DNA of 64,000 nucleotides from Escherichia coli (lineage in GTDB: Bacteria > Pseudomonadota > Gammaproteobacteria > Enterobacterales > Enterobacteriaceae). The stretch's first letter is position 1. Each line of letters begins with the position of its first letter. The notes under the pieces were generated by a model. The model was given only the letters and a program-made list of their open reading frames with translations. It made no database searches and was not told the DNA's origin. This document shows positions 16,317-52,454 of the stretch, in pieces. A program made the position numbers and the translations under genes. The DNA lies in NCBI RefSeq assembly GCF_030384885.1, contig NZ_CP128613.1; one strand, 5' to 3'.

Positions 16317-17063
16317 ATGGAACAAGCGCATACCCAGCTGATTGCCCAACTGAACGAACGTATTTTAGCGGCGGATAACACGCCGCTTTATATTAAGTTT
16401 GCCGAAACGGTGAAAAATGCCGTGCGCAGCGGGGTGCTGGAACATGGCAATATTTTACCCGGCGAGCGCGATTTAAGTCAGTTAACTGGCGTTTCGCGCA
16501 TTACGGTGCGCAAGGCGATGCAGGCGCTGGAAGAAGAGGGGGTGGTGACGCGTTCGCGCGGTTATGGCACGCAGATCAACAACATCTTCGAATACTCGTT
16601 GAAAGAAGCGCGAGGTTTTTCTCAGCAGGTGGTATTGCGCGGGAAAAAGCCCGATACGCTATGGGTTAACAAGCGTGTCGTGAAATGTCCCGAAGAAGTC
16701 GCGCAGCAGCTGGCGGTCGAAGCGGGAAGTGATGTCTTTTTGCTTAAGCGTATTCGCTATGTCGATGAAGAAGCGGTATCGATTGAGGAATCGTGGGTTC
16801 CGGCGCATTTAATTCATGATGTTGATGCCATCGGAATTTCTCTTTATGACTACTTCCGCAGCCAGCACATTTACCCACAACGTACCCGTTCCCGCGTTAG
16901 CGCCCGGATGCCGGATGCCGAGTTTCAGTCACATATTCAATTAGATAGTAAAATACCGGTGCTGGTGATCAAGCAAGTGGCGCTTGACCAACAGCAACGG
17001 CCTATTGAGTACAGCATCAGCCACTGTCGCAGTGATCTATACGTTTTTGTGTGCGAGGAGTAG
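16317..17063 (+). CDS. yegW: GntR-family transcriptional regulator (HTH plus UTRA-like C-terminal domain)
   Basis: 248 aa; N-terminal winged-HTH region (GERDLSQLTGVSRITVRKAMQALEEEGVV). Confidence 0.85.
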   Translation: MEQAHTQLIAQLNERILAADNTPLYIKFAETVKNAVRSGVLEHGNILPGERDLSQLTGVSRITVRKAMQALEEEGVVTRSRGYGTQINNIFEYSLKEARGFSQQVVLRGKKPDTLWVNKRVVKCPEEVAQQLAVEAGSDVFLLKRIRYVDEEAVSIEESWVPAHLIHDVDAIGISLYDYFRSQHIYPQRTRSRVSARMPDAEFQSHIQLDSKIPVLVIKQVALDQQQRPIEYSISHCRSDLYVFVCEE

Positions 17064-18002
17064 TTCCTCGCGGGTTGGCGCGCAATCACCGCCGCGATGC
17101 CCGACAACCCACGACGCCACTGCATTGCCCAGCAATACGGCATCCGGCAGTGGCAGACCAGAGGCCAGCCCGGCAAGTACGCCACCGGCATGACTGTCGC
17201 CCGCCCCAATGGTGTCTACAACTTGCGTTGGAAATGCCGGAATGCAGCCAGAAGCGTCGTTGCTGAAATACCATGCGCCTTCTTTATCGAGACGAACGAT
17301 CAACGGCGCGGCAAATTTCTCCTGCCATTGCTTGCCAAGTGTTGTTATCTCTGCGGATAAAGCAAAACGTTCGGCGGCAATCTCAGCCTCCTGACGATTG
17401 AGTGACACTAAAGGTCGACAGGCCATGATCCGCGCCAGTAATGCGTCCGGGATATCGCCAATACGTGGGCCAAAATCGATAAACGGCGTCACGTCTTGCA
17501 GCTTTTCCAGCCATTCCACTAACAATTCGCCGCAGGGCGAGGCCAGTTGATAACCGGAAAAATAGAGCAGGCTGCCAGGCGCAACGGTTAATCGCGCCAA
17601 CCATTGGCGATTCCACTGATTTTCCACACCGCTGAATGACATAAAAGTGCGTTCGCCATCCGGCTCAACCAGCGCCAGACACCAGCCGTTATCACCTTCG
17701 GCGTTATCGATCTGGCTGATTAAGCCCTCTTTTGCCATCCGGTTGCGAATAATCTCCGCCCAAACCCCCTGACCGAGCGGCAAGGCATTACCCGCTTCGA
17801 TGCCGAGGCGCTTTAACGCCACGGCAATATTCAGTGCGCAGCCGCCAACGTTAACGCTCTGCTGTTTCAGTTCGATATCGCACCCACGCCAGGGGAGGGC
17901 ATAAGCGTCGGCGATCACGTCAATGACCGCCGCGCCGACGACCATCACCGGCTGACGCGTGGTTAATTCAGGCAGCAGCGTGTGTAATCGAGCGCCGCTC
18001 AT
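17037..18002 (-). CDS. yegV: PfkB/ribokinase-family sugar or nucleoside kinase
   Basis: 321 aa; GAGD motif near the C-terminus (DTIGAGDSHAGG); 3' end overlaps the yegW 3' end by 27 nt (convergent). Confidence 0.85.
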   Translation of the reverse strand: MSGARLHTLLPELTTRQPVMVVGAAVIDVIADAYALPWRGCDIELKQQSVNVGGCALNIAVALKRLGIEAGNALPLGQGVWAEIIRNRMAKEGLISQIDNAEGDNGWCLALVEPDGERTFMSFSGVENQWNRQWLARLTVAPGSLLYFSGYQLASPCGELLVEWLEKLQDVTPFIDFGPRIGDIPDALLARIMACRPLVSLNRQEAEIAAERFALSAEITTLGKQWQEKFAAPLIVRLDKEGAWYFSNDASGCIPAFPTQVVDTIGAGDSHAGGVLAGLASGLPLPDAVLLGNAVASWVVGHRGGDCAPTREELLLAHKNV

Positions 18003-19003: not shown

Positions 19004-20277
19004 TTAACTTCCCCTTGTGTCAACGCAATATCGCGATCATCGACCTTGATAGCCGTAATTTCGTTGTCGGATTCGCGGAAAAAAATCATGAACAGCACGG
19101 CGATAATGGCAATCATCACCGCGCCGAAAGTCCACATCCCGGACCAGTTGAAAGTCAGTCCGTTTACCGGTTCCGGATAAGCGAACATCTTTTCCATCAT
19201 CACACCGCCAAGACGATAGCCGAGCAAACTGCCGAATCCCTGGCAGCAGAGCGTGATCAGCCCCTGCGCAGCGGTACGCATATGCACGGGGGCTTTTTTA
19301 TCGACATAGATGTAAGCGGTAACGTAGTAAAAATCGTAACTTACTCCATGCAGCAAAATGCCGAGGAACAGTAACGCGTAGGTGAAATATTCATCCGCAC
19401 TACCGTAAATAAAGAAGCCATAGCGGATCGCAGCGGTGACCAGACCAAGTAATAATACCTTTTTGATACCAAAGCGTTTGGTAAAAAACGGCAATGCCAG
19501 CATAAAGAAGATTTCAGAGAACTGGCCGAGCGTCATCCAGCCGGTGGCATTTTTCATGCCGACTTCGGTCAGATAACCGTTGGCAAAGATGTAATAGAAC
19601 GCCAACGGCATCGCAAACAGGAATGAACAGAAGAAAAAGACGAGGAAGTTTTTATCGCGCAGCAGGATCAGCGCATCCAGTCCGAGCATGACTTTAATGT
19701 CCATTTTGCCGGTGCTTTTTGGCGGCGTGTCAGGCAGGAAAAACGCAAACACACCGAGCAGAGCAGAACTTCCGGCGGTAATCAGCAGCGGGATGTTAGT
19801 CGGAGAGATATCGGCATAACCCAGCATTTGCGGCAAGAATCCACATGCCAGACCGGAGGCAATCCAGCCGATAGTGCCCATCACACGAATGCGTGGGAAA
19901 TCACGCTCCACATCCGGCACGTTGGCAAAAGCGATACTGTTAGTCAGCGCAATGGTCGGCATATAGGTTAGCGAGTAGGCCAGCAGTAACGGGAAGAAGC
20001 CGGCAAAAGTGGTCTGTTGCGCAGCGAAATACATCAGCGCCGCACCAGCGAACATCAATACCGCCAGCACTTTCTGCGCCGAGAAAAAGCGGTCAGTGAT
20101 GGAGCCAACCAGAATTGGCGACAGGATCGCTGCAATGGCGGTACAGGCATACGACCAACCAATTTCTCCGGCACTAAAACCGCTTTTACTTAACCACAAC
20201 CACAATGGCACAAACCACGCGCCCCAGATAAACCATTCAACAAACATCATGAACGACAGCTTTGCTGTTGTTTTCAT
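19000..20277 (-). CDS. yegT: MFS nucleoside:H+ symporter-family transporter
   Basis: 425-aa polytopic membrane protein; first gene of yegTUV. Confidence 0.85.
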   Translation of the reverse strand: MKTTAKLSFMMFVEWFIWGAWFVPLWLWLSKSGFSAGEIGWSYACTAIAAILSPILVGSITDRFFSAQKVLAVLMFAGAALMYFAAQQTTFAGFFPLLLAYSLTYMPTIALTNSIAFANVPDVERDFPRIRVMGTIGWIASGLACGFLPQMLGYADISPTNIPLLITAGSSALLGVFAFFLPDTPPKSTGKMDIKVMLGLDALILLRDKNFLVFFFCSFLFAMPLAFYYIFANGYLTEVGMKNATGWMTLGQFSEIFFMLALPFFTKRFGIKKVLLLGLVTAAIRYGFFIYGSADEYFTYALLFLGILLHGVSYDFYYVTAYIYVDKKAPVHMRTAAQGLITLCCQGFGSLLGYRLGGVMMEKMFAYPEPVNGLTFNWSGMWTFGAVMIAIIAVLFMIFFRESDNEITAIKVDDRDIALTQGEVK

Positions 20278-31681: not shown

Positions 31682-33082
31682 TTAAAGAAAGGGAATATAA
31701 CCCCATAACTTGTTGTGAAGTTCCGGATTGCAGGTAAAAAGCGCCTGAAGTTGCTGACGCTGAGGAGCATTTGGTTGAATGCCCGAAAGATTGAAATTGC
31801 GTTGCCATATCGCGAGCTGTTTACCTGCAAATTCTTCAGTTAGCTTGTGTTGCGATTGCAGAAGAAGAATTAAACAGGCCCATTTGTTCAAGTTATGATA
31901 CAGCCGACAATATGCGCAAGCATGTTTAACTGACGGTGCGTTTTCCAGCAACTTACGTATTTCCTCGAACGTAAGCGGAACTCGACACCATACACAGATG
32001 TTAACCATAAATCGAAGCCCGGAGGCGTCCGGGTTAGCCAGTGTGGTCAGAATAATCCCTTTGACACCACCATCAGGATTGGCTTTCGCAAGAATATACA
32101 TAGCGGCTAATCGCATTGGGAATACATCCTGTGATAATCCCCATTCTGCCAGTTTTAAAATATTGGCATCATGAATGGAGTCCAGCCCGTATAAAGCTGC
32201 CCGGCGCTGTGAGGGAGTATATTCAGTCGAGGTGACAACATGACGCCAGAATTGCACAACATCCATGACGTCATTAAGCATGTTTTTAGCGCGTAGACGG
32301 ATCAACATATTGTTATCCAGCAGTAATGCGCTGTACAACGCCGGAGGAATTTCTATAGCTCGGTCAGTAAGGCTAAACAACGTTGCTTGTCGAATACGCG
32401 GCCAGCGGTCTTTTAACAGACGAGTTAATACCGCTTCGCTTAACGGTAATTGTTGACGCAGCCAGTGGGTGACCGCCAGCATTCGTAAACCTTCGTCGGG
32501 CTGCTTGAGTATTAAAAGCAGCGAAGATTCATCATTAAAGTAGCCATATTCAATCAGCGTTTGTAATACTGCGCGGGAGAGTTTTTTATCAGGGCAAGTA
32601 AGCCAACACGTTAATTGTGGACGGCTATTTTCTGTCAATAAAAATCTAAGTATCTCGTCTACAAATGCACGGTGATCGTAACGCTGGCATTGGAGAAGGT
32701 TACGTATCAAGGGAAGATTAACGGCAAATGCCGCTGCATTCTTATCCTTCTTTAAATGACGTAACGCTATGGTTGCAGCAAGGCGAACCTCTTTTACCCA
32801 GTCATTAGCTGCAAGTAATAATTCTTCTATAGCTGCAACATCCTCTTTTTGTCCCAGACATTGCACGGCCTTTTCTCGTATATATCCATTGTGGTGATGG
32901 GTAAGCTGGCAAAGAACCAGAGTATCGTTGAGATCACAATCATGCGCTATATAATTGCCTGGATCGGCTATCATCGACTGGAGTTGTTGCTGGATAAGAA
33001 ATAATTCACAGTCAACAGAATTATTCATTTCGACGTTAAACAAAACCCTGCGTGTAAATAATGTACGCAATCCTTTGAGCAT
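31682..33082 (-). CDS. hypothetical alpha-helical repeat (HEAT/ARM-like) protein, 466 aa; not a gene I recognise at this locus
   Basis: Complete ORF in a visibly AT-richer stretch than its neighbours; recurring hydrophobic/Ala-rich helical repeats (WVKEVRLAATIALRHL, LRMLAVTHWLRQ, PMRLAAMYILAKA); no signal peptide or TM segment evident. Confidence 0.6.
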   Translation of the reverse strand: MLKGLRTLFTRRVLFNVEMNNSVDCELFLIQQQLQSMIADPGNYIAHDCDLNDTLVLCQLTHHHNGYIREKAVQCLGQKEDVAAIEELLLAANDWVKEVRLAATIALRHLKKDKNAAAFAVNLPLIRNLLQCQRYDHRAFVDEILRFLLTENSRPQLTCWLTCPDKKLSRAVLQTLIEYGYFNDESSLLLILKQPDEGLRMLAVTHWLRQQLPLSEAVLTRLLKDRWPRIRQATLFSLTDRAIEIPPALYSALLLDNNMLIRLRAKNMLNDVMDVVQFWRHVVTSTEYTPSQRRAALYGLDSIHDANILKLAEWGLSQDVFPMRLAAMYILAKANPDGGVKGIILTTLANPDASGLRFMVNICVWCRVPLTFEEIRKLLENAPSVKHACAYCRLYHNLNKWACLILLLQSQHKLTEEFAGKQLAIWQRNFNLSGIQPNAPQRQQLQALFTCNPELHNKLWGYIPFL

Positions 33083-44932: not shown

Positions 44933-45073
44933 GGGAAAGCCCCTCCCGAGGAAGGGGCCTTAAATAAGGAAAGGGTCATGATGAAGATACTCATCATCGT
45001 GGTGCTCTTAGTCGTTAGCTACCCAGCTTACTAAGACTACCAGGGCGGGGAAAACCCCGCTCTACCCTCACTC
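44933..45073 (-). ncRNA. sibA: Sib antisense antitoxin RNA, unit 1 (approximate ends)
   Basis: Ends placed by analogy to the K-12 sibA/ibsA geometry (sib fully overlaps ibs on the opposite strand); not mapped from sequence. Confidence 0.45.
44978..45034 (+). CDS. ibsA: type I toxin Ibs, 18-aa hydrophobic peptide (MMKILIIVVLLVVSYPAY)
   Basis: ATGATGAAG... ORF preceded by an AGGAAAGGG RBS; matches the Ibs family. Confidence 0.75.
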   Translation: MMKILIIVVLLVVSYPAY

Positions 45074-45260
45074 CTGAAAATATGCCTTCACGGTCAGAAT
45101 GTCAATCCGCAGGCTTTGCAGTCTGCGATCCTGCCAGCAAATATTCTTTGCGAGTCGTTACGCAATAATCACAGATGAAACTATTTTATCTACGCGTTAG
45201 CGATAGACTGCATTCAGGGCGAAAGGAGGTAAGCCGATGATTTCAGCGGGACGCTGAAAC

Positions 45261-45401
45261 GGGAAAGCCCCTCCCGAGGAAGGGGCCTTAAATAAGGAAA
45301 GGGTCATGATGAAGTGGATCATCATCGTGGTGCTCTTAGTCATTAGCTTACCGGCTTACTAAGACTACCAGGGCGGGGGAAACCCCGCTCAACCCTCACT
45401 C
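45261..45401 (-). ncRNA. sibB: Sib antisense antitoxin RNA, unit 2 (approximate ends)
   Basis: As unit 1. Confidence 0.45.
45306..45362 (+). CDS. ibsB: type I toxin Ibs copy 2 (MMKWIIIVVLLVISLPAY)
   Basis: Second repeat unit; same architecture. Confidence 0.75.
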   Translation: MMKWIIIVVLLVISLPAY

Positions 45402-45588
45402 CTGAAAGTATGCCTTCACAATCAGATTGTCAATCCGCAGGCTTTGTAGTCTGCGATCCTGCCAGCAAATATTCTTTGCGAGACGTTACGCAATAATCAC
45501 ATGTGAAACTATTTTATCTGCAAGTTAGCGATAGACTGCTTGCATGGCGAAAGGAGGTAGGCCGCCGATTTCAGCGGGACGCTGAAAC

Positions 45589-45729
45589 GGGAAAGCCCCT
45601 TCCGAGGAAGGGGCCTTAAATAAGGAAAGGGTCATGATGAAGCTACTCATCATCGTGGTGCTCTTAGTTATTAGCTGGCCAGCTTACTAAGACTACCAGG
45701 GCGGGGGAAACCCCGCTCTACCCTCACTC
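45589..45729 (-). ncRNA. Sib antisense antitoxin RNA, unit 3 (approximate ends)
   Basis: As unit 1. Confidence 0.4.
45634..45690 (+). CDS. type I toxin Ibs copy 3 (MMKLLIIVVLLVISWPAY)
   Basis: Third repeat unit; same architecture. Confidence 0.7.
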   Translation: MMKLLIIVVLLVISWPAY

Positions 45730-45907
45730 CTGAAGTTATGTTACTCCACCCTTATTGTCAATCTGTAAGTCCACGTTCTTGCGGGGCGAATAGCAAAACC
45801 CTCTGCGCTTATGGGCCGAATTCTGAAAGTTGCTTTGCCTGCTCTTATTTCATTATTGCAGTCGGTATGATACCGGACCTCAATAATTCTCTAAGAAAGG
45901 ATTTCTT

Positions 45908-46567: not shown

Positions 46568-47325
46568 GCTGGCGTCTGGTCTATGCATCAGCCGTTGGAA
46601 CGTCGCACATCAGCGCTGACTTGTCTTGCCAGGATGCCTGCCAGATGCAGGTTGCCTGGCTAGAAGACCAGCAGCCATTATTGTCGGTATTTGTCGCTGA
46701 TGGCGCAGGCAGCGTCTCGCAGGGAGGCGAAGGTGCGAAGCTTGCCGTCAATGAAGCGATGGCTTATATATCGCAAAAAGTGCAGGGTGGGGAATTGGAG
46801 CTTAATGATGTCCTCGCCACGGATATTGTACTGACTATTCGTCAGCGACTTTTTGCCGAGGCAGAGGCCAAAGAATTAGCGGTTCGCGATTTTGCCTGCA
46901 CATTTCTGGGACTGATTTCATCGCCTAACGGCACATTGATTATGCAGATTGGCGATGGTGGCGTGGTCGTAGATTTGGGGCACGGTTTGCAATTGCCGCT
47001 CACGCCGATGGTGGGTGAATATGCCAACATGACGCATTTCATTACCGATGAAGATGCCGTTTCCAGACTGGAAATTTTCACCAGCACTGAGCGTGCGCAT
47101 AGAGTTGCAGCATTTACGGATGGTATTCAGAGACTGGCGTTAAATATGCTGGATAATTCTCCGCATGTGCCTTTCTTTACCCCGTTTTTCAATGGACTGG
47201 CGTCAGCAACGCAGGAACAACTCGATTTATTACCTGAATTGTTAAAGCAGTTTTTGTCCAGCCCAGCGGTAAACGAGCGTACCGATGATGATAAAACGTT
47301 AGCACTGGCTATGTGGACAGAATAA
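46564..47325 (+). CDS. yegK: PP2C-family Ser/Thr protein phosphatase
   Basis: 253 aa; Asp-rich metal-binding patches ([16 protein letters not shown]); coupled to yegL. Confidence 0.85.
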
Positions 47326-48051: not shown

Positions 48052-49998
48052 ATGAAGACAAATATAAAAGTATTTACATCGACAGGTGAATTGACCACTC
48101 TCGGGCGTGAACTGGGCAAAGGCGGCGAAGGCGCGGTTTATGATATCGAGGAGTTTGTCGATAGCGTTGCCAAGATTTATCACACGCCGCCACCCGCCTT
48201 AAAACAGGACAAACTTGCCTTTATGGCTGCGACAGCTGACGCGCAGTTGCTGAATTATGTCGCCTGGCCGCAAGCAACGCTTCATAGTGGACGAGGTGGG
48301 AAGGTTATCGGTTTTATGATGCCAAAAGTTTCTGGTAAAGAACCGATTCATATGATCTATAGCCCGGCACATCGTCGCCAGAGTTACCCTCATTGTGCGT
48401 GGGATTTTCTCCTCTATGTTGCGCGCAATATTGCTTCATCTTTTGCTACGGTTCATGAGCACGGGCATGTCGTGGGTGACGTAAACCAGAACAGCTTTAT
48501 GGTAGGCCGTGACAGCAAAGTGGCGTTGATTGATAGCGACTCCTTTCAGATTAACGCCAATGGCACACTGCATTTATGCGAAGTCGGCGTGTCGCATTTT
48601 ACGCCGCCAGAGCTGCAAACCTTGTCGTCATTTGTTGGCTTTGAACGCACAGAAAATCACGATAATTTTGGCCTTGCGTTGCTGATATTTCACGTCTTGT
48701 TTGGTGGGCGGCATCCTTATTCTGGTGTGCCGCTTATCTCTGATGCGGGTAATGCGCTGGAGACGGATATTGCCCATTTTCGTTATGCCTACGCGTCAGA
48801 CAATCAGAGACGTGGCTTAAAACCGCCGCCACGATCGATTCCGCTATCGATGTTACCGGGTGATGTTGCAGCCATGTTTCAGCAGGCATTCACGGAAAGT
48901 GGCGTGGCAACCGGGCGTCCGACGGCAAAAGCGTGGGTTGCGGCACTTGATTTACTACGCCAACAATTAAAGAAATGTACCGTTTCAGCAATGCATGTTT
49001 ACCCTTGTCATTTAACCGACTGCCCGTGGTGTGCGCTGGATAATCAAGGCGTTATCTATTTTATTGATCTCGGCGAAGAGGTGATTACCACCGTCGGTGA
49101 TTTTGTGCTGGCGAAAGTCTGGGCGATGGTGATGGCGTCAGTAGCACCACCAGCATTACAGTTACCATTACCCGATCATTTCCAACCAGCTGGCAGGCCG
49201 CTTCCTTTAGGCCTGTTACGGCGTGAATACATTATTCTGATTGAGATCACACTGTCAGCGTTATCGCTGTTGCTTTGCGGTCTTCAGGCAGAACCGCGTT
49301 ATATTATTTTGGTGCCTGTGCTGGCGGCTATCTGGATTATTGGCAGTCTGACAAGCAAAGCTTACAAAGCAGAAGTCCAGCACCGTCGTGAGGTATTTAA
49401 TCGTGCGAAAATGGACTATGACCATTTAGTCAGCCAGATCCAACAGTTGGGCGGGTTGGAAGGTTTTATCGCCAAACGGACGATGCTTGAAAAAATGAAG
49501 GACGAAATTCTTGGGTTACCGGAAGAAGAAAAGCGCGATCTGGCAGCACTTCAGGACAACGCAAGGGAACGGCAGAAGCAGAAGTTTCTGGAGGGATTTT
49601 TTATTGATGCTGCCTCTATTCCCGGCGTTGGCCCTGCGCGTAAAGCGGCGTTACGGTCTTTTGGTATTGAAACAGCAGCAGATGTTACCCGTCGTGGTGT
49701 TAAGCAAGTGAAAGGGTTTGGTGATCATCTGACCCAGGCGGTTATCGACTGGAAAGCGAGTTGCGAACGCCGTTTTGTGTTCAGGCCGAATGAAGCGGTA
49801 ACGCCAGCAGACAGACAAGCGGTAATGGCGAAAATGACCGCCAAACGACATCGGCTGGAATCGGCACTGATTGTCGGCGCGACAGAGTTGCAGCGATTCC
49901 GCCTTCATGCTCCTGCACGGACCATGCCGTTGATGGAACCATTACGTCAGGCAGCGGAGAAACTGGCTCAGGCGCAGGCTGATTTAAGCCGCTGCTGA
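48052..49998 (+). CDS. yegI: eukaryotic-like Ser/Thr protein kinase with central TM region and C-terminal domain
   Basis: 648 aa; glycine-rich GRELGKGGEGAVY, VAKIY lysine, catalytic-loop-like HVVGDVNQNSFMV, DFG-like IDSDSF; hydrophobic segment around residues ~400-440. Confidence 0.88.
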   Translation: MKTNIKVFTSTGELTTLGRELGKGGEGAVYDIEEFVDSVAKIYHTPPPALKQDKLAFMAATADAQLLNYVAWPQATLHSGRGGKVIGFMMPKVSGKEPIHMIYSPAHRRQSYPHCAWDFLLYVARNIASSFATVHEHGHVVGDVNQNSFMVGRDSKVALIDSDSFQINANGTLHLCEVGVSHFTPPELQTLSSFVGFERTENHDNFGLALLIFHVLFGGRHPYSGVPLISDAGNALETDIAHFRYAYASDNQRRGLKPPPRSIPLSMLPGDVAAMFQQAFTESGVATGRPTAKAWVAALDLLRQQLKKCTVSAMHVYPCHLTDCPWCALDNQGVIYFIDLGEEVITTVGDFVLAKVWAMVMASVAPPALQLPLPDHFQPAGRPLPLGLLRREYIILIEITLSALSLLLCGLQAEPRYIILVPVLAAIWIIGSLTSKAYKAEVQHRREVFNRAKMDYDHLVSQIQQLGGLEGFIAKRTMLEKMKDEILGLPEEEKRDLAALQDNARERQKQKFLEGFFIDAASIPGVGPARKAALRSFGIETAADVTRRGVKQVKGFGDHLTQAVIDWKASCERRFVFRPNEAVTPADRQAVMAKMTAKRHRLESALIVGATELQRFRLHAPARTMPLMEPLRQAAEKLAQAQADLSRC

Positions 49999-50010
49999 GC
50001 CATTTTTCAA

Positions 50011-51363
50011 TTAACGAAACACCACTTCTGCCCAACGTGCCAGCCCGGCGGTGACGGAGCCAAAGTCATCGCCGCCTGCAATCGGAATGCCCGGCAACTG
50101 TTCTGCCAGCGCTTTTTTAATCAGCGGCGATCGGGCGCTACCACCAGTCAGATAGATGACATCCGGTTTTTCCTGGGCGTTATCCAGCGCCAGTTGCACC
50201 TGTTCCAGAATTCGCGCCAGCGGCTGACTGAGGGCGTTTTCCAGTCCTTGTTGGCTAATCAGTGTTGCCAGTTCATCGCTGATAAACGGCAGCGATGCAC
50301 GAGTTTCTGCTGCGCTGGAAAGGGCGATTTTGCTCTCTTCCGCGCTGCGTACCAGCCGATAACTTAAACGCTGACGCCAGACTTTCTGTAACAGGGCCAC
50401 TTTCTCCGGTTCGCGGGCGTCGCGTACCAGGTCGTTAAGCAGACGACCGTTAGCACTACTGTAGAAATCACTCTGCGCTGGTACATCGTTGATGGCAACC
50501 GCATTCCACCACGGCAGGATCGGCAGGGCGATGCCTTTTTCAGTTTCGCCACCCATGCCCAGTAATGGCATCAGATTTTTAAACGCCAGTGCGATATCCA
50601 GATCGTTACCGCCAATACGGCAACCACTGTGACCCAGCAGGCTGGCTTCACGATCGAGGCGCGAACGCCACTGTGGCCCCATTAGCAGTAAAGAACAGTC
50701 AGTCGTACCACCGCCGATATCCACCACCAGTACGCGTTTTTCTTCCTGCAAGGTGGCTTCGTAATCCAGCCCAGCCGCCACCGGCTCGTACTGGAATACC
50801 ACGTCCTTAAACCCGGCACGCTTCGCTGCGCGCTCCAGAATCCCTTGTGCCTGGGCGTTTGCCTCATCGCCGCCCAGCCCCTGGAAGTTGATCGGGCGAC
50901 CAATCACCGCCTGGGTAATCGCTTCTGGCAGCTGTGTCTGGGCCTGCTTGCGAATGTGCAACATCATTGCGCAGACCAGATCCTCAAACAGTGCTACCTG
51001 CTGCGGTTTTAAGCCGCTGGCACCGAGGAACGATTTTGGTGATTTCACAAACCACACTTCTTCTGGATCATCAATGTACTGTGCCAATGAGGAAAGACCG
51101 AACTGCACGCTTTTCGCCGTAACATCAATATCTTCTTCGCGGTTATAACGAATCGCCCGACGCAGCAGCGCCTGCGTTTCATCGTCGTCTGCCGGAACAT
51201 CATGATGGCGGTACAGCCATTCGCTTACGGCTTCACGCGTTGGCGCGCAAAGCATTGAAGGCAGCAGCGTGCTGTCGTTTTCCATTTTCAGTAATTGCGG
51301 TTTACCGTCACGCATGACCGCGACTGAACAGTTTGCTGTACCGTAATCAAAACCAATAAACAC
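50011..51363 (-). CDS. yegD: Hsp70/actin-fold ATPase homolog YegD
   Basis: Track ORF 50011..51426; likely GTG start at VFIGFDYGTANCSVAV (450 aa); phosphate-1 and VLVVDIGGGTTDCSLL motifs. Confidence 0.85.
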   Translation of the reverse strand: MFIGFDYGTANCSVAVMRDGKPQLLKMENDSTLLPSMLCAPTREAVSEWLYRHHDVPADDDETQALLRRAIRYNREEDIDVTAKSVQFGLSSLAQYIDDPEEVWFVKSPKSFLGASGLKPQQVALFEDLVCAMMLHIRKQAQTQLPEAITQAVIGRPINFQGLGGDEANAQAQGILERAAKRAGFKDVVFQYEPVAAGLDYEATLQEEKRVLVVDIGGGTTDCSLLLMGPQWRSRLDREASLLGHSGCRIGGNDLDIALAFKNLMPLLGMGGETEKGIALPILPWWNAVAINDVPAQSDFYSSANGRLLNDLVRDAREPEKVALLQKVWRQRLSYRLVRSAEESKIALSSAAETRASLPFISDELATLISQQGLENALSQPLARILEQVQLALDNAQEKPDVIYLTGGSARSPLIKKALAEQLPGIPIAGGDDFGSVTAGLARWAEVVFR

Positions 51364-52345: not shown

Positions 52346-52353
52346 CGTTGGTC

Positions 52354-52437
52354 GCCGGATGTGGTGCGAGCGCCTTATCCGGCCTGGGGAATGAGCGATT
52401 TGTAGGCATGATAAGACGCGTTAGCGTCGCATCAGGC
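52354..52437. repeat. BIME-like pair of REP elements between alkA and dgcE
   Basis: gccggatgtggtgcgagcgccttatccggcc and gtaggcatgataagacgcgttagcgtcgcatcaggc. Confidence 0.7.
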
Positions 52438-52454
52438 AATGGGCAAACGCTCCC

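Follow-up and report, generated by a model that had tools for sequence, protein, structure and literature searches.

The Escherichia coli genes yegI and yegD converge within a 64-kb chromosomal segment extending from metG to wzc (taken from contig NZ_CP128613.1; hereafter, the window), and the junction of their coding ends harbors a predicted hairpin resembling a transcription terminator (Table 1). Annotation was drawn from the Prokaryotic Genome Annotation Pipeline (PGAP) features of NZ_CP027579.1 (strain 2013C-4282, positions 358857-422856), onto which window coordinates map directly; the two sequences differ by 12 single-base changes in 64 kb, none of them at or near the junction. The yegI frame terminates with a TGA codon (49996-49998), preceded by AGC CGC TGC, while the yegD frame, on the minus strand, terminates with a TAA codon (50013-50011; the plus strand reads TTA, then ACG). 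The preliminary description of this DNA had placed the two stop codons 12 bp apart, which the sequence, the list of open reading frames (ORFs) and the PGAP annotation bear out to the base. In Pfam searches, YegD matched the HSP70 family (E = 2e-24) and YegI matched nothing; the latter result fits the published description of YegI, known from a title cited in PMC13232886, as a kinase without conserved motifs. The gaps of the eight convergent pairs of the window are 81, -27, 81, 341, 64, 12, 109 and 458 bp. With two of eight gaps at or below 12 bp, a convergent gap as short as that of yegI/yegD is not rare, judged on these pairs.

Four bases of the 12-bp gap (GCCA) belong to the stem of the hairpin, the next five form a U-tract (TTTTT) and CAA follows. 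The rest of the hairpin comes from yegI itself: the last 11 codons and the TGA stop, the four gap bases completing it. The structure has an outer stem of 8 bp (UGGCUCAG/CUGAGCCA) and, beyond a 2x2 internal loop, an inner stem of 6 bp that carries one bulge and closes a loop of 6 nucleotides (nt), for a total of 14 pairs, 9 of which are G-C. The 5′ arm corresponds to yegI codons Leu-Ala-Gln; the 3′ arm runs from the final base of the Cys codon through the TGA stop to GCCA. A repeat finder returned the inverted repeat AAACTGGCTCAG/CTGAGCCATTTT at 49960-49971/49995-50006. The TTTTT run (UUUUU in RNA; 50003..50007) abuts the stem directly, in keeping with the start at 0 to 2 nt after the stem that intrinsic terminators require. 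The yegI-direction U-tract lies 3′ of the yegI stop, while the stop codon itself falls within the 3′ arm of the stem; the yegD TAA codon is 8 nt before the stem. On the yegD-sense RNA, the complement of the gap, UUGAAAAA, forms an A-tract entering the hairpin, and GUUUCUCC follows the hairpin. The plus-strand flank upstream of the hairpin reads GAGAAAC in this strain, and the U-tract in the yegD direction is weak, or degenerate.

As yegI-sense RNA, the hairpin folds with -24.5/-25.3 kcal/mol. Dinucleotide shuffles averaged -14.9 ± 2.6 kcal/mol, and none of 200 was as stable as the -25.3 kcal/mol fold (z = -4.0). The mirror hairpin of the yegD-sense RNA folds with -21.8/-25.1 kcal/mol (z = -3.1). 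Both strands of the 64-kb window were scanned for any U-rich tail with a folded hairpin no more than 2 nt ahead. By energy, the junction hairpin ranked 3rd of 1766 distinct hairpin-plus-U-tail candidates, and 2nd of the 290 with a strong U-tail. None of the other seven convergent pairs has a plus-strand candidate as strong, and the junction is the only one of the eight with a candidate usable in both directions. The contribution of the protein sequence was evaluated by synonymously recoding the last 11 yegI codons with the codon usage of the window, the stop codon and gap being kept fixed. Recoded sequences averaged -12.4 ± 3.3 kcal/mol and none of 5000 reached the -24.6 kcal/mol of the real one; the result held when randomisation was extended to the stop codon and the four gap bases. 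Since no recoding was as stable, the hairpin is not a by-product of the YegI peptide. Rfam returned six matches in the window at the gathering score, none of them near position 50000, and shows no family at the junction.

The arrangement is widespread in Escherichia. The junction is present in 5407 of 5426 complete E. coli genomes. K-12 strain MG1655 (yegD, 2147674..2149026; yegI, 2149039..2150985) has the same 12-bp gap, as do E. whittamii, two further Escherichia species and E. coli E69; the gap is 11 bp in E. coli 90-3040 and 258E. Comparison of these sequences indicates that the arrangement is old and stable within the genus. The strain analyzed here belongs to a different E. coli lineage from K-12, with about 95% identity over the 301 bp around the junction. 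In K-12, two substitutions turn the upstream flank into AGAAAAAC and the yegD-sense tail into GUUUUUCU. The K-12 element is thus near-symmetric (AGAAAAAC-hairpin-AUUUUUC), with -26.3 kcal/mol in the yegI sense and -26.6 kcal/mol in the yegD sense. On the opposite strand, the combination of hairpin and U-tract is good in K-12 and weak in this strain (GAGAAAC; tail GUUUCUCC). The hairpin is kept in E. whittamii and three other Escherichia lineages, and 95.5% of cells were paired in a covariation test on 8 Escherichia sequences. One-sided changes occur at five pairs, all from G-C to G-U in the yegI-sense RNA, and mismatches at two. The T-tract lies directly 3′ of the stem in all the lineages compared and is kept or lengthened (TTTTCTTTT) in the strains with an 11-bp gap, where the tract reads UUUUCUUUU.

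A few observations concern the distribution of the genes themselves. In a set of 100,044 species genomes, relatives of yegI were found in Escherichia only, plus one 559-bp contig labelled Streptomyces. This low-coverage contig (NZ_SSBJ01000306.1, Streptomyces sp. A1136) holds a fragment of YegI with 95% identity to its E. coli counterpart and probably represents E. coli contamination of the Streptomyces assembly. The soil isolate E. coli MEI4BO-21 (NZ_CM149565.1, 1775014-1780146) lacks the whole yegL-pphC-yegJ-yegI block; there, an ibs toxin gene lies opposite yegD at a distance of 82 bp, and only a fragment of dgcE is present. The absence of the block identifies the yegI cluster as an insertion or deletion unit beside yegD.

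Taken together, the gap and a hairpin that is both conserved and statistically in excess, all of them computed, point to a compact shared (bidirectional) intrinsic terminator at the yegI/yegD junction, a reading to which we give a probability of roughly 0.7. In this model, the actual 3′ ends, the efficiency of termination and any regulatory effect are what we infer. Intrinsic terminators produce a 3′ end 7 to 9 nt after the stem. The polymerase transcribing yegI would accordingly be expected to stop some 7-9 nt past the stem, around 50008-50011, at the edge of the yegD stop codon. Coming from the other side, the polymerase transcribing yegD would cross the gap, copy the complementary hairpin within yegI and stop around 49955-49957. 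If both mRNAs used the terminator, they would have a perfectly complementary 3′ end of about 55 nt in common. The obligatory overlap may therefore be only these ~55 nt, that is, the hairpin itself, as at known bidirectional terminators. Translation could complicate the picture. Both stop codons lie within the stem or no more than 8 nt from it; hence, a trailing ribosome is expected to hinder folding of the hairpin, and some read-through into the partner gene would occur when the message is actively translated. This translation-dependent fraction would be finished in the partner gene by Rho or by head-on collision. Leaky termination when either gene is well translated is, by analogy, plausible.

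Table 1. Coordinates (window positions) of the features at the yegI/yegD junction and of the yegW/yegV pair.
Feature	Position	Strand	Source
yegI, Ser/Thr protein kinase YegI, 648 aa	48052..49998	+	ORF list and PGAP annotation of NZ_CP027579.1
yegD, molecular chaperone, Hsp70-family protein, 450 aa	50011..51363	-	ORF list and PGAP annotation of NZ_CP027579.1
Intergenic gap, 12 bp, GCCATTTTTCAA	49999..50010	.	Sequence and folds
Shared terminator hairpin (predicted), 39 nt	49964..50002	.	Folds, inverted repeat, window scan, recoding
U-tract of the yegI-direction terminator (predicted), UUUUUCAAUU	50003..50012	+	Sequence and window scan
Tail of the yegD-direction terminator (predicted): GUUUCUCCGC in this strain (weak), GUUUUUCUGC in K-12 (good)	49954..49963	-	Folds
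yegW	16317..17063	+	PGAP annotation of NZ_CP027579.1
yegV	17037..18002	-	PGAP annotation of NZ_CP027579.1
27-nt overlap of the yegW (+) and yegV (-) coding ends	17037..17063	.	Annotation and sequence
Hairpin within the yegW frame, candidate yegV terminator, followed by UAUUUUACUA	16955..17001	-	Top match of the window scan

The effect of a nearby stop codon and the overlap of the K-12 transcripts are both taken from the literature. Termination fell from about 90% to less than 10% when a stop codon was shifted from 28 to 5 bp upstream of a terminator (Li et al., Nucleic Acids Research 2016, PMC4824070); the effect, shown with a lambda tR2 reporter, is caused by the trailing ribosome blocking the folding of the hairpin. 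ExcludonFinder (Nucleic Acids Research 2025, PMC12288877) identified 165 convergent MG1655 pairs whose transcripts overlap in 50% or more of 58 RNA sequencing (RNA-seq) sets. Its Table 1 of convergent excludons includes yegD-yegI, yegV-yegW and dgcE-alkA, and in 146 of the 165 pairs the terminators predicted by TransTermHP lie inside the neighbour's transcription unit. The preliminary description had held that the gap leaves no room for independent terminators and that the two transcripts should overlap at their 3′ ends. Twelve base pairs indeed cannot hold two separate terminators, but the implied absence of a signal is not supported, given the hairpin and its T5 tract. The overlap agrees with the K-12 listing, although it may span only ~55 nt given the terminator. 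Since the pair is listed there, the predicted overlap was already catalogued together with its general cause, and yegI/yegD is an ordinary overlapping-terminator arrangement.

Several points weigh against a shared terminator. The yegD-direction tail, GUUUCUCC, is poor in this strain, and the hairpin of Escherichia sp. MOD1-EC7003 is weaker (-18 kcal/mol, z = -1.9). No compensatory double substitution was found in the 8 Escherichia sequences, and covariation shuffles gave the same values as observed; the sequences are at most ~12% diverged, which makes this test uninformative, so that the comparison yields conservation and no covariation support. If a hairpin shares sequence with a stop codon in translation, it may seldom form during transcription. 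In the Term-seq tables of Adams et al. 2021 there is no yegI/yegD entry: the interval 2143342-2153420 of the K-12 plus strand has no listed 3′ end, and no coordinate in the supplements starts with 21489, 21490 or 21491. yegI and its neighbours show weak expression or none in standard growth (PMC13232886). The Term-seq absence fits such low expression, without confirming a terminator. In the same RNase E interactor study, overproduction of YegJ raised yegD about 8-fold, and yegI is not listed as changed; this is the one observation that bears on reciprocal expression of the pair. Finally, a simple scan for consensus promoters and terminators flagged nothing at the junction. This last objection was rejected: the rule needs an uninterrupted stem and missed the site because the stem is interrupted, while folding and the custom scan recover it.

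The alternative that survives best, though we consider it rather unlikely, is that the junction has no working terminator and that both transcripts run long antisense into the partner gene, to be ended diffusely by head-on collision or by Rho acting on the antisense RNA, which is not translated. On this reading, mutual interference would follow from collision and from RNase III cleavage of the resulting duplex. A yegD transcript that passes its own stop codon does run antisense into yegI, and in the first 600 nt downstream neither direction offers another good terminator. One stop codon is part of the hairpin and the other precedes it by 8 nt, positions at which ribosomes all but eliminate intrinsic termination (PMC4824070), and the weak yegD-direction U-tract of this strain works in the same sense. 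The excludon class rests on RNA-seq coverage (PMC12288877), and hairpins between convergent genes have been described as sites where collision drives termination (10.1101/2022.10.23.513370). Against these arguments, the hairpin with its T5 tract is a terminator-like signal, the strongest on the plus strand among the eight convergent pairs, and its stability goes far beyond what the amino-acid sequence requires. Moreover, coupling between ribosome and polymerase is stochastic, so that part of the transcripts should still terminate, and the effect would be smaller still on genes that are poorly translated, yegI among them.

The hairpin might instead serve mainly as a 3′-end stabiliser or processing site, either by blocking 3′ exonucleases or by forming a target of RNase III once the two RNAs pair. 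A stable stem is indeed located at the very 3′ end of both messages, and Rho-dependent transcripts are reportedly often trimmed back to such a stem. This role is nonetheless improbable, for 5 to 9 T residues directly after the stem, kept or lengthened across strains, are the hallmark of intrinsic termination and would be needless for an exonuclease barrier. The 3′ ends of Rho-dependent transcripts are the subject of a mapping study by Dar and Sorek (PMC6061677).

A terminator gated by translation would go one step further: a ribosome on either mRNA would shut off termination of that same mRNA and send the polymerase antisense into the partner. We regard this version as a long shot. If true, it would tie YegI and YegD, within the yegD-yegL signalling cluster, into a reciprocal switch that senses translation. 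Lastly, it is hardly credible, and was already disfavoured, that the palindrome has no function and results from the C-terminal peptide of YegI (LAQAQADLSRC) together with neutral drift: the lack of compensatory covariation and the somewhat self-complementary Ala/Gln repeat (GCN CAG GCN CAG) speak for it, but the recoding test, the origin of half of the outer stem in the stop codon and non-coding gap bases, and the T-tract placed exactly after the stem in all lineages speak against it.

The second convergent pair named in the preliminary description, yegW/yegV, shows the reported 27-nt overlap exactly. Its coding ends were said to resemble those of yegI/yegD. The likeness holds in that a candidate terminator is embedded in the coding end of the partner; it fails in that this one is one-sided and serves yegV only. 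The hairpin within yegW is the strongest hairpin-plus-U-tail of the 64-kb window (-26.8 kcal/mol as yegV-sense RNA), lies 36-82 nt past the yegV stop and was equalled in stability by none of 5000 synonymous recodings. It is probably the terminator of yegV. Read on the plus strand, this hairpin lies ahead of the yegW stop with a poor tail and is thus usable for yegV only; no good yegW terminator was found within ~600 nt inside yegV.

At another pair of the K-12 listing, alkA/dgcE, the 109-bp gap (52346-52454) holds no good hairpin-plus-U-tail in either direction. Adams et al. reported a bicyclomycin-responsive 3′ end at K-12 position 2146686 (+), antisense to alkA and a short way beyond dgcE, which suggests that termination at alkA/dgcE depends on Rho, in contrast to the yegI/yegD junction. 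Two strong terminator-like hairpins occur inside yegT, at 19088-19135 (minus strand) and 19259-19294 (plus strand). The sense hairpin (-24.3 kcal/mol, then U7) is upstream of yegU and precedes the yegT stop by 88 nt; the antisense hairpin has -21.0 kcal/mol, with UUUUUAU after it. The two could act as attenuation signals within the gene, or have arisen by chance in a membrane-protein gene rich in Phe codons. Elsewhere in the window, position 46658 reads TGG versus TAG in NZ_CP027579.1, so that pphC (yegK) is intact here and a pseudogene with an internal stop there. Three tandem modules of Ibs toxin and Sib antitoxin RNA occupy 44963-45761 (Rfam SIB_RNA, 137-139 bits each), and the corresponding K-12 stretch has two (sibA/ibsA and sibB/ibsB). 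A gene for a 466-aa "HEAT repeat domain-containing protein" lies between yegP and yegQ (31682-33082, minus strand).

A very short convergent gap does not imply that termination signals are missing; at yegI/yegD the predicted signal is folded into the end of a reading frame. The last 11 yegI codons would then be under a double constraint. For studies of YegI, PphC, YegJ and YegD, this means that deleting or tagging the yegI C-terminus would also destroy the putative yegD terminator, and that editing the end of yegD would affect yegI, so that genetic experiments could be confounded.

The junction can be compared with several known systems. Like bidirectional intrinsic terminators, it has one GC-rich hairpin between converging genes, flanked by an A-tract and, on the opposite side, a T-tract, which could be read on both strands. 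Unlike them, its hairpin is not intergenic: it comprises the last 35 nt of the yegI frame including the stop, only the T-tract and four stem bases fall in the gap, and one U-tract is degenerate in this strain. The excludons of ExcludonFinder (PMC12288877) include yegD-yegI by name, but the listing derives from K-12 RNA-seq coverage, whereas the strain of the window belongs to another lineage and is considered here from its sequence alone. Hairpins between convergent E. coli genes that end transcription from both sides form a known class (Ju et al. 2019, as cited in 10.1101/2022.10.23.513370). At the SEnd-seq sites of Ju et al. 2019 and in the collision model of Wang et al. (ynaJ-uspE), a hairpin in the convergent overlap positions the ends, as proposed here; such sites are described as not resembling intrinsic terminators, whereas the yegI/yegD junction, having U-tracts, does. 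With ribosome-repressed terminators (PMC4824070), finally, the junction shares a stop codon inside the hairpin or within a few nt of it, and translation should lower its efficiency; the effect itself was demonstrated at another locus, for lambda tR2 in a reporter.

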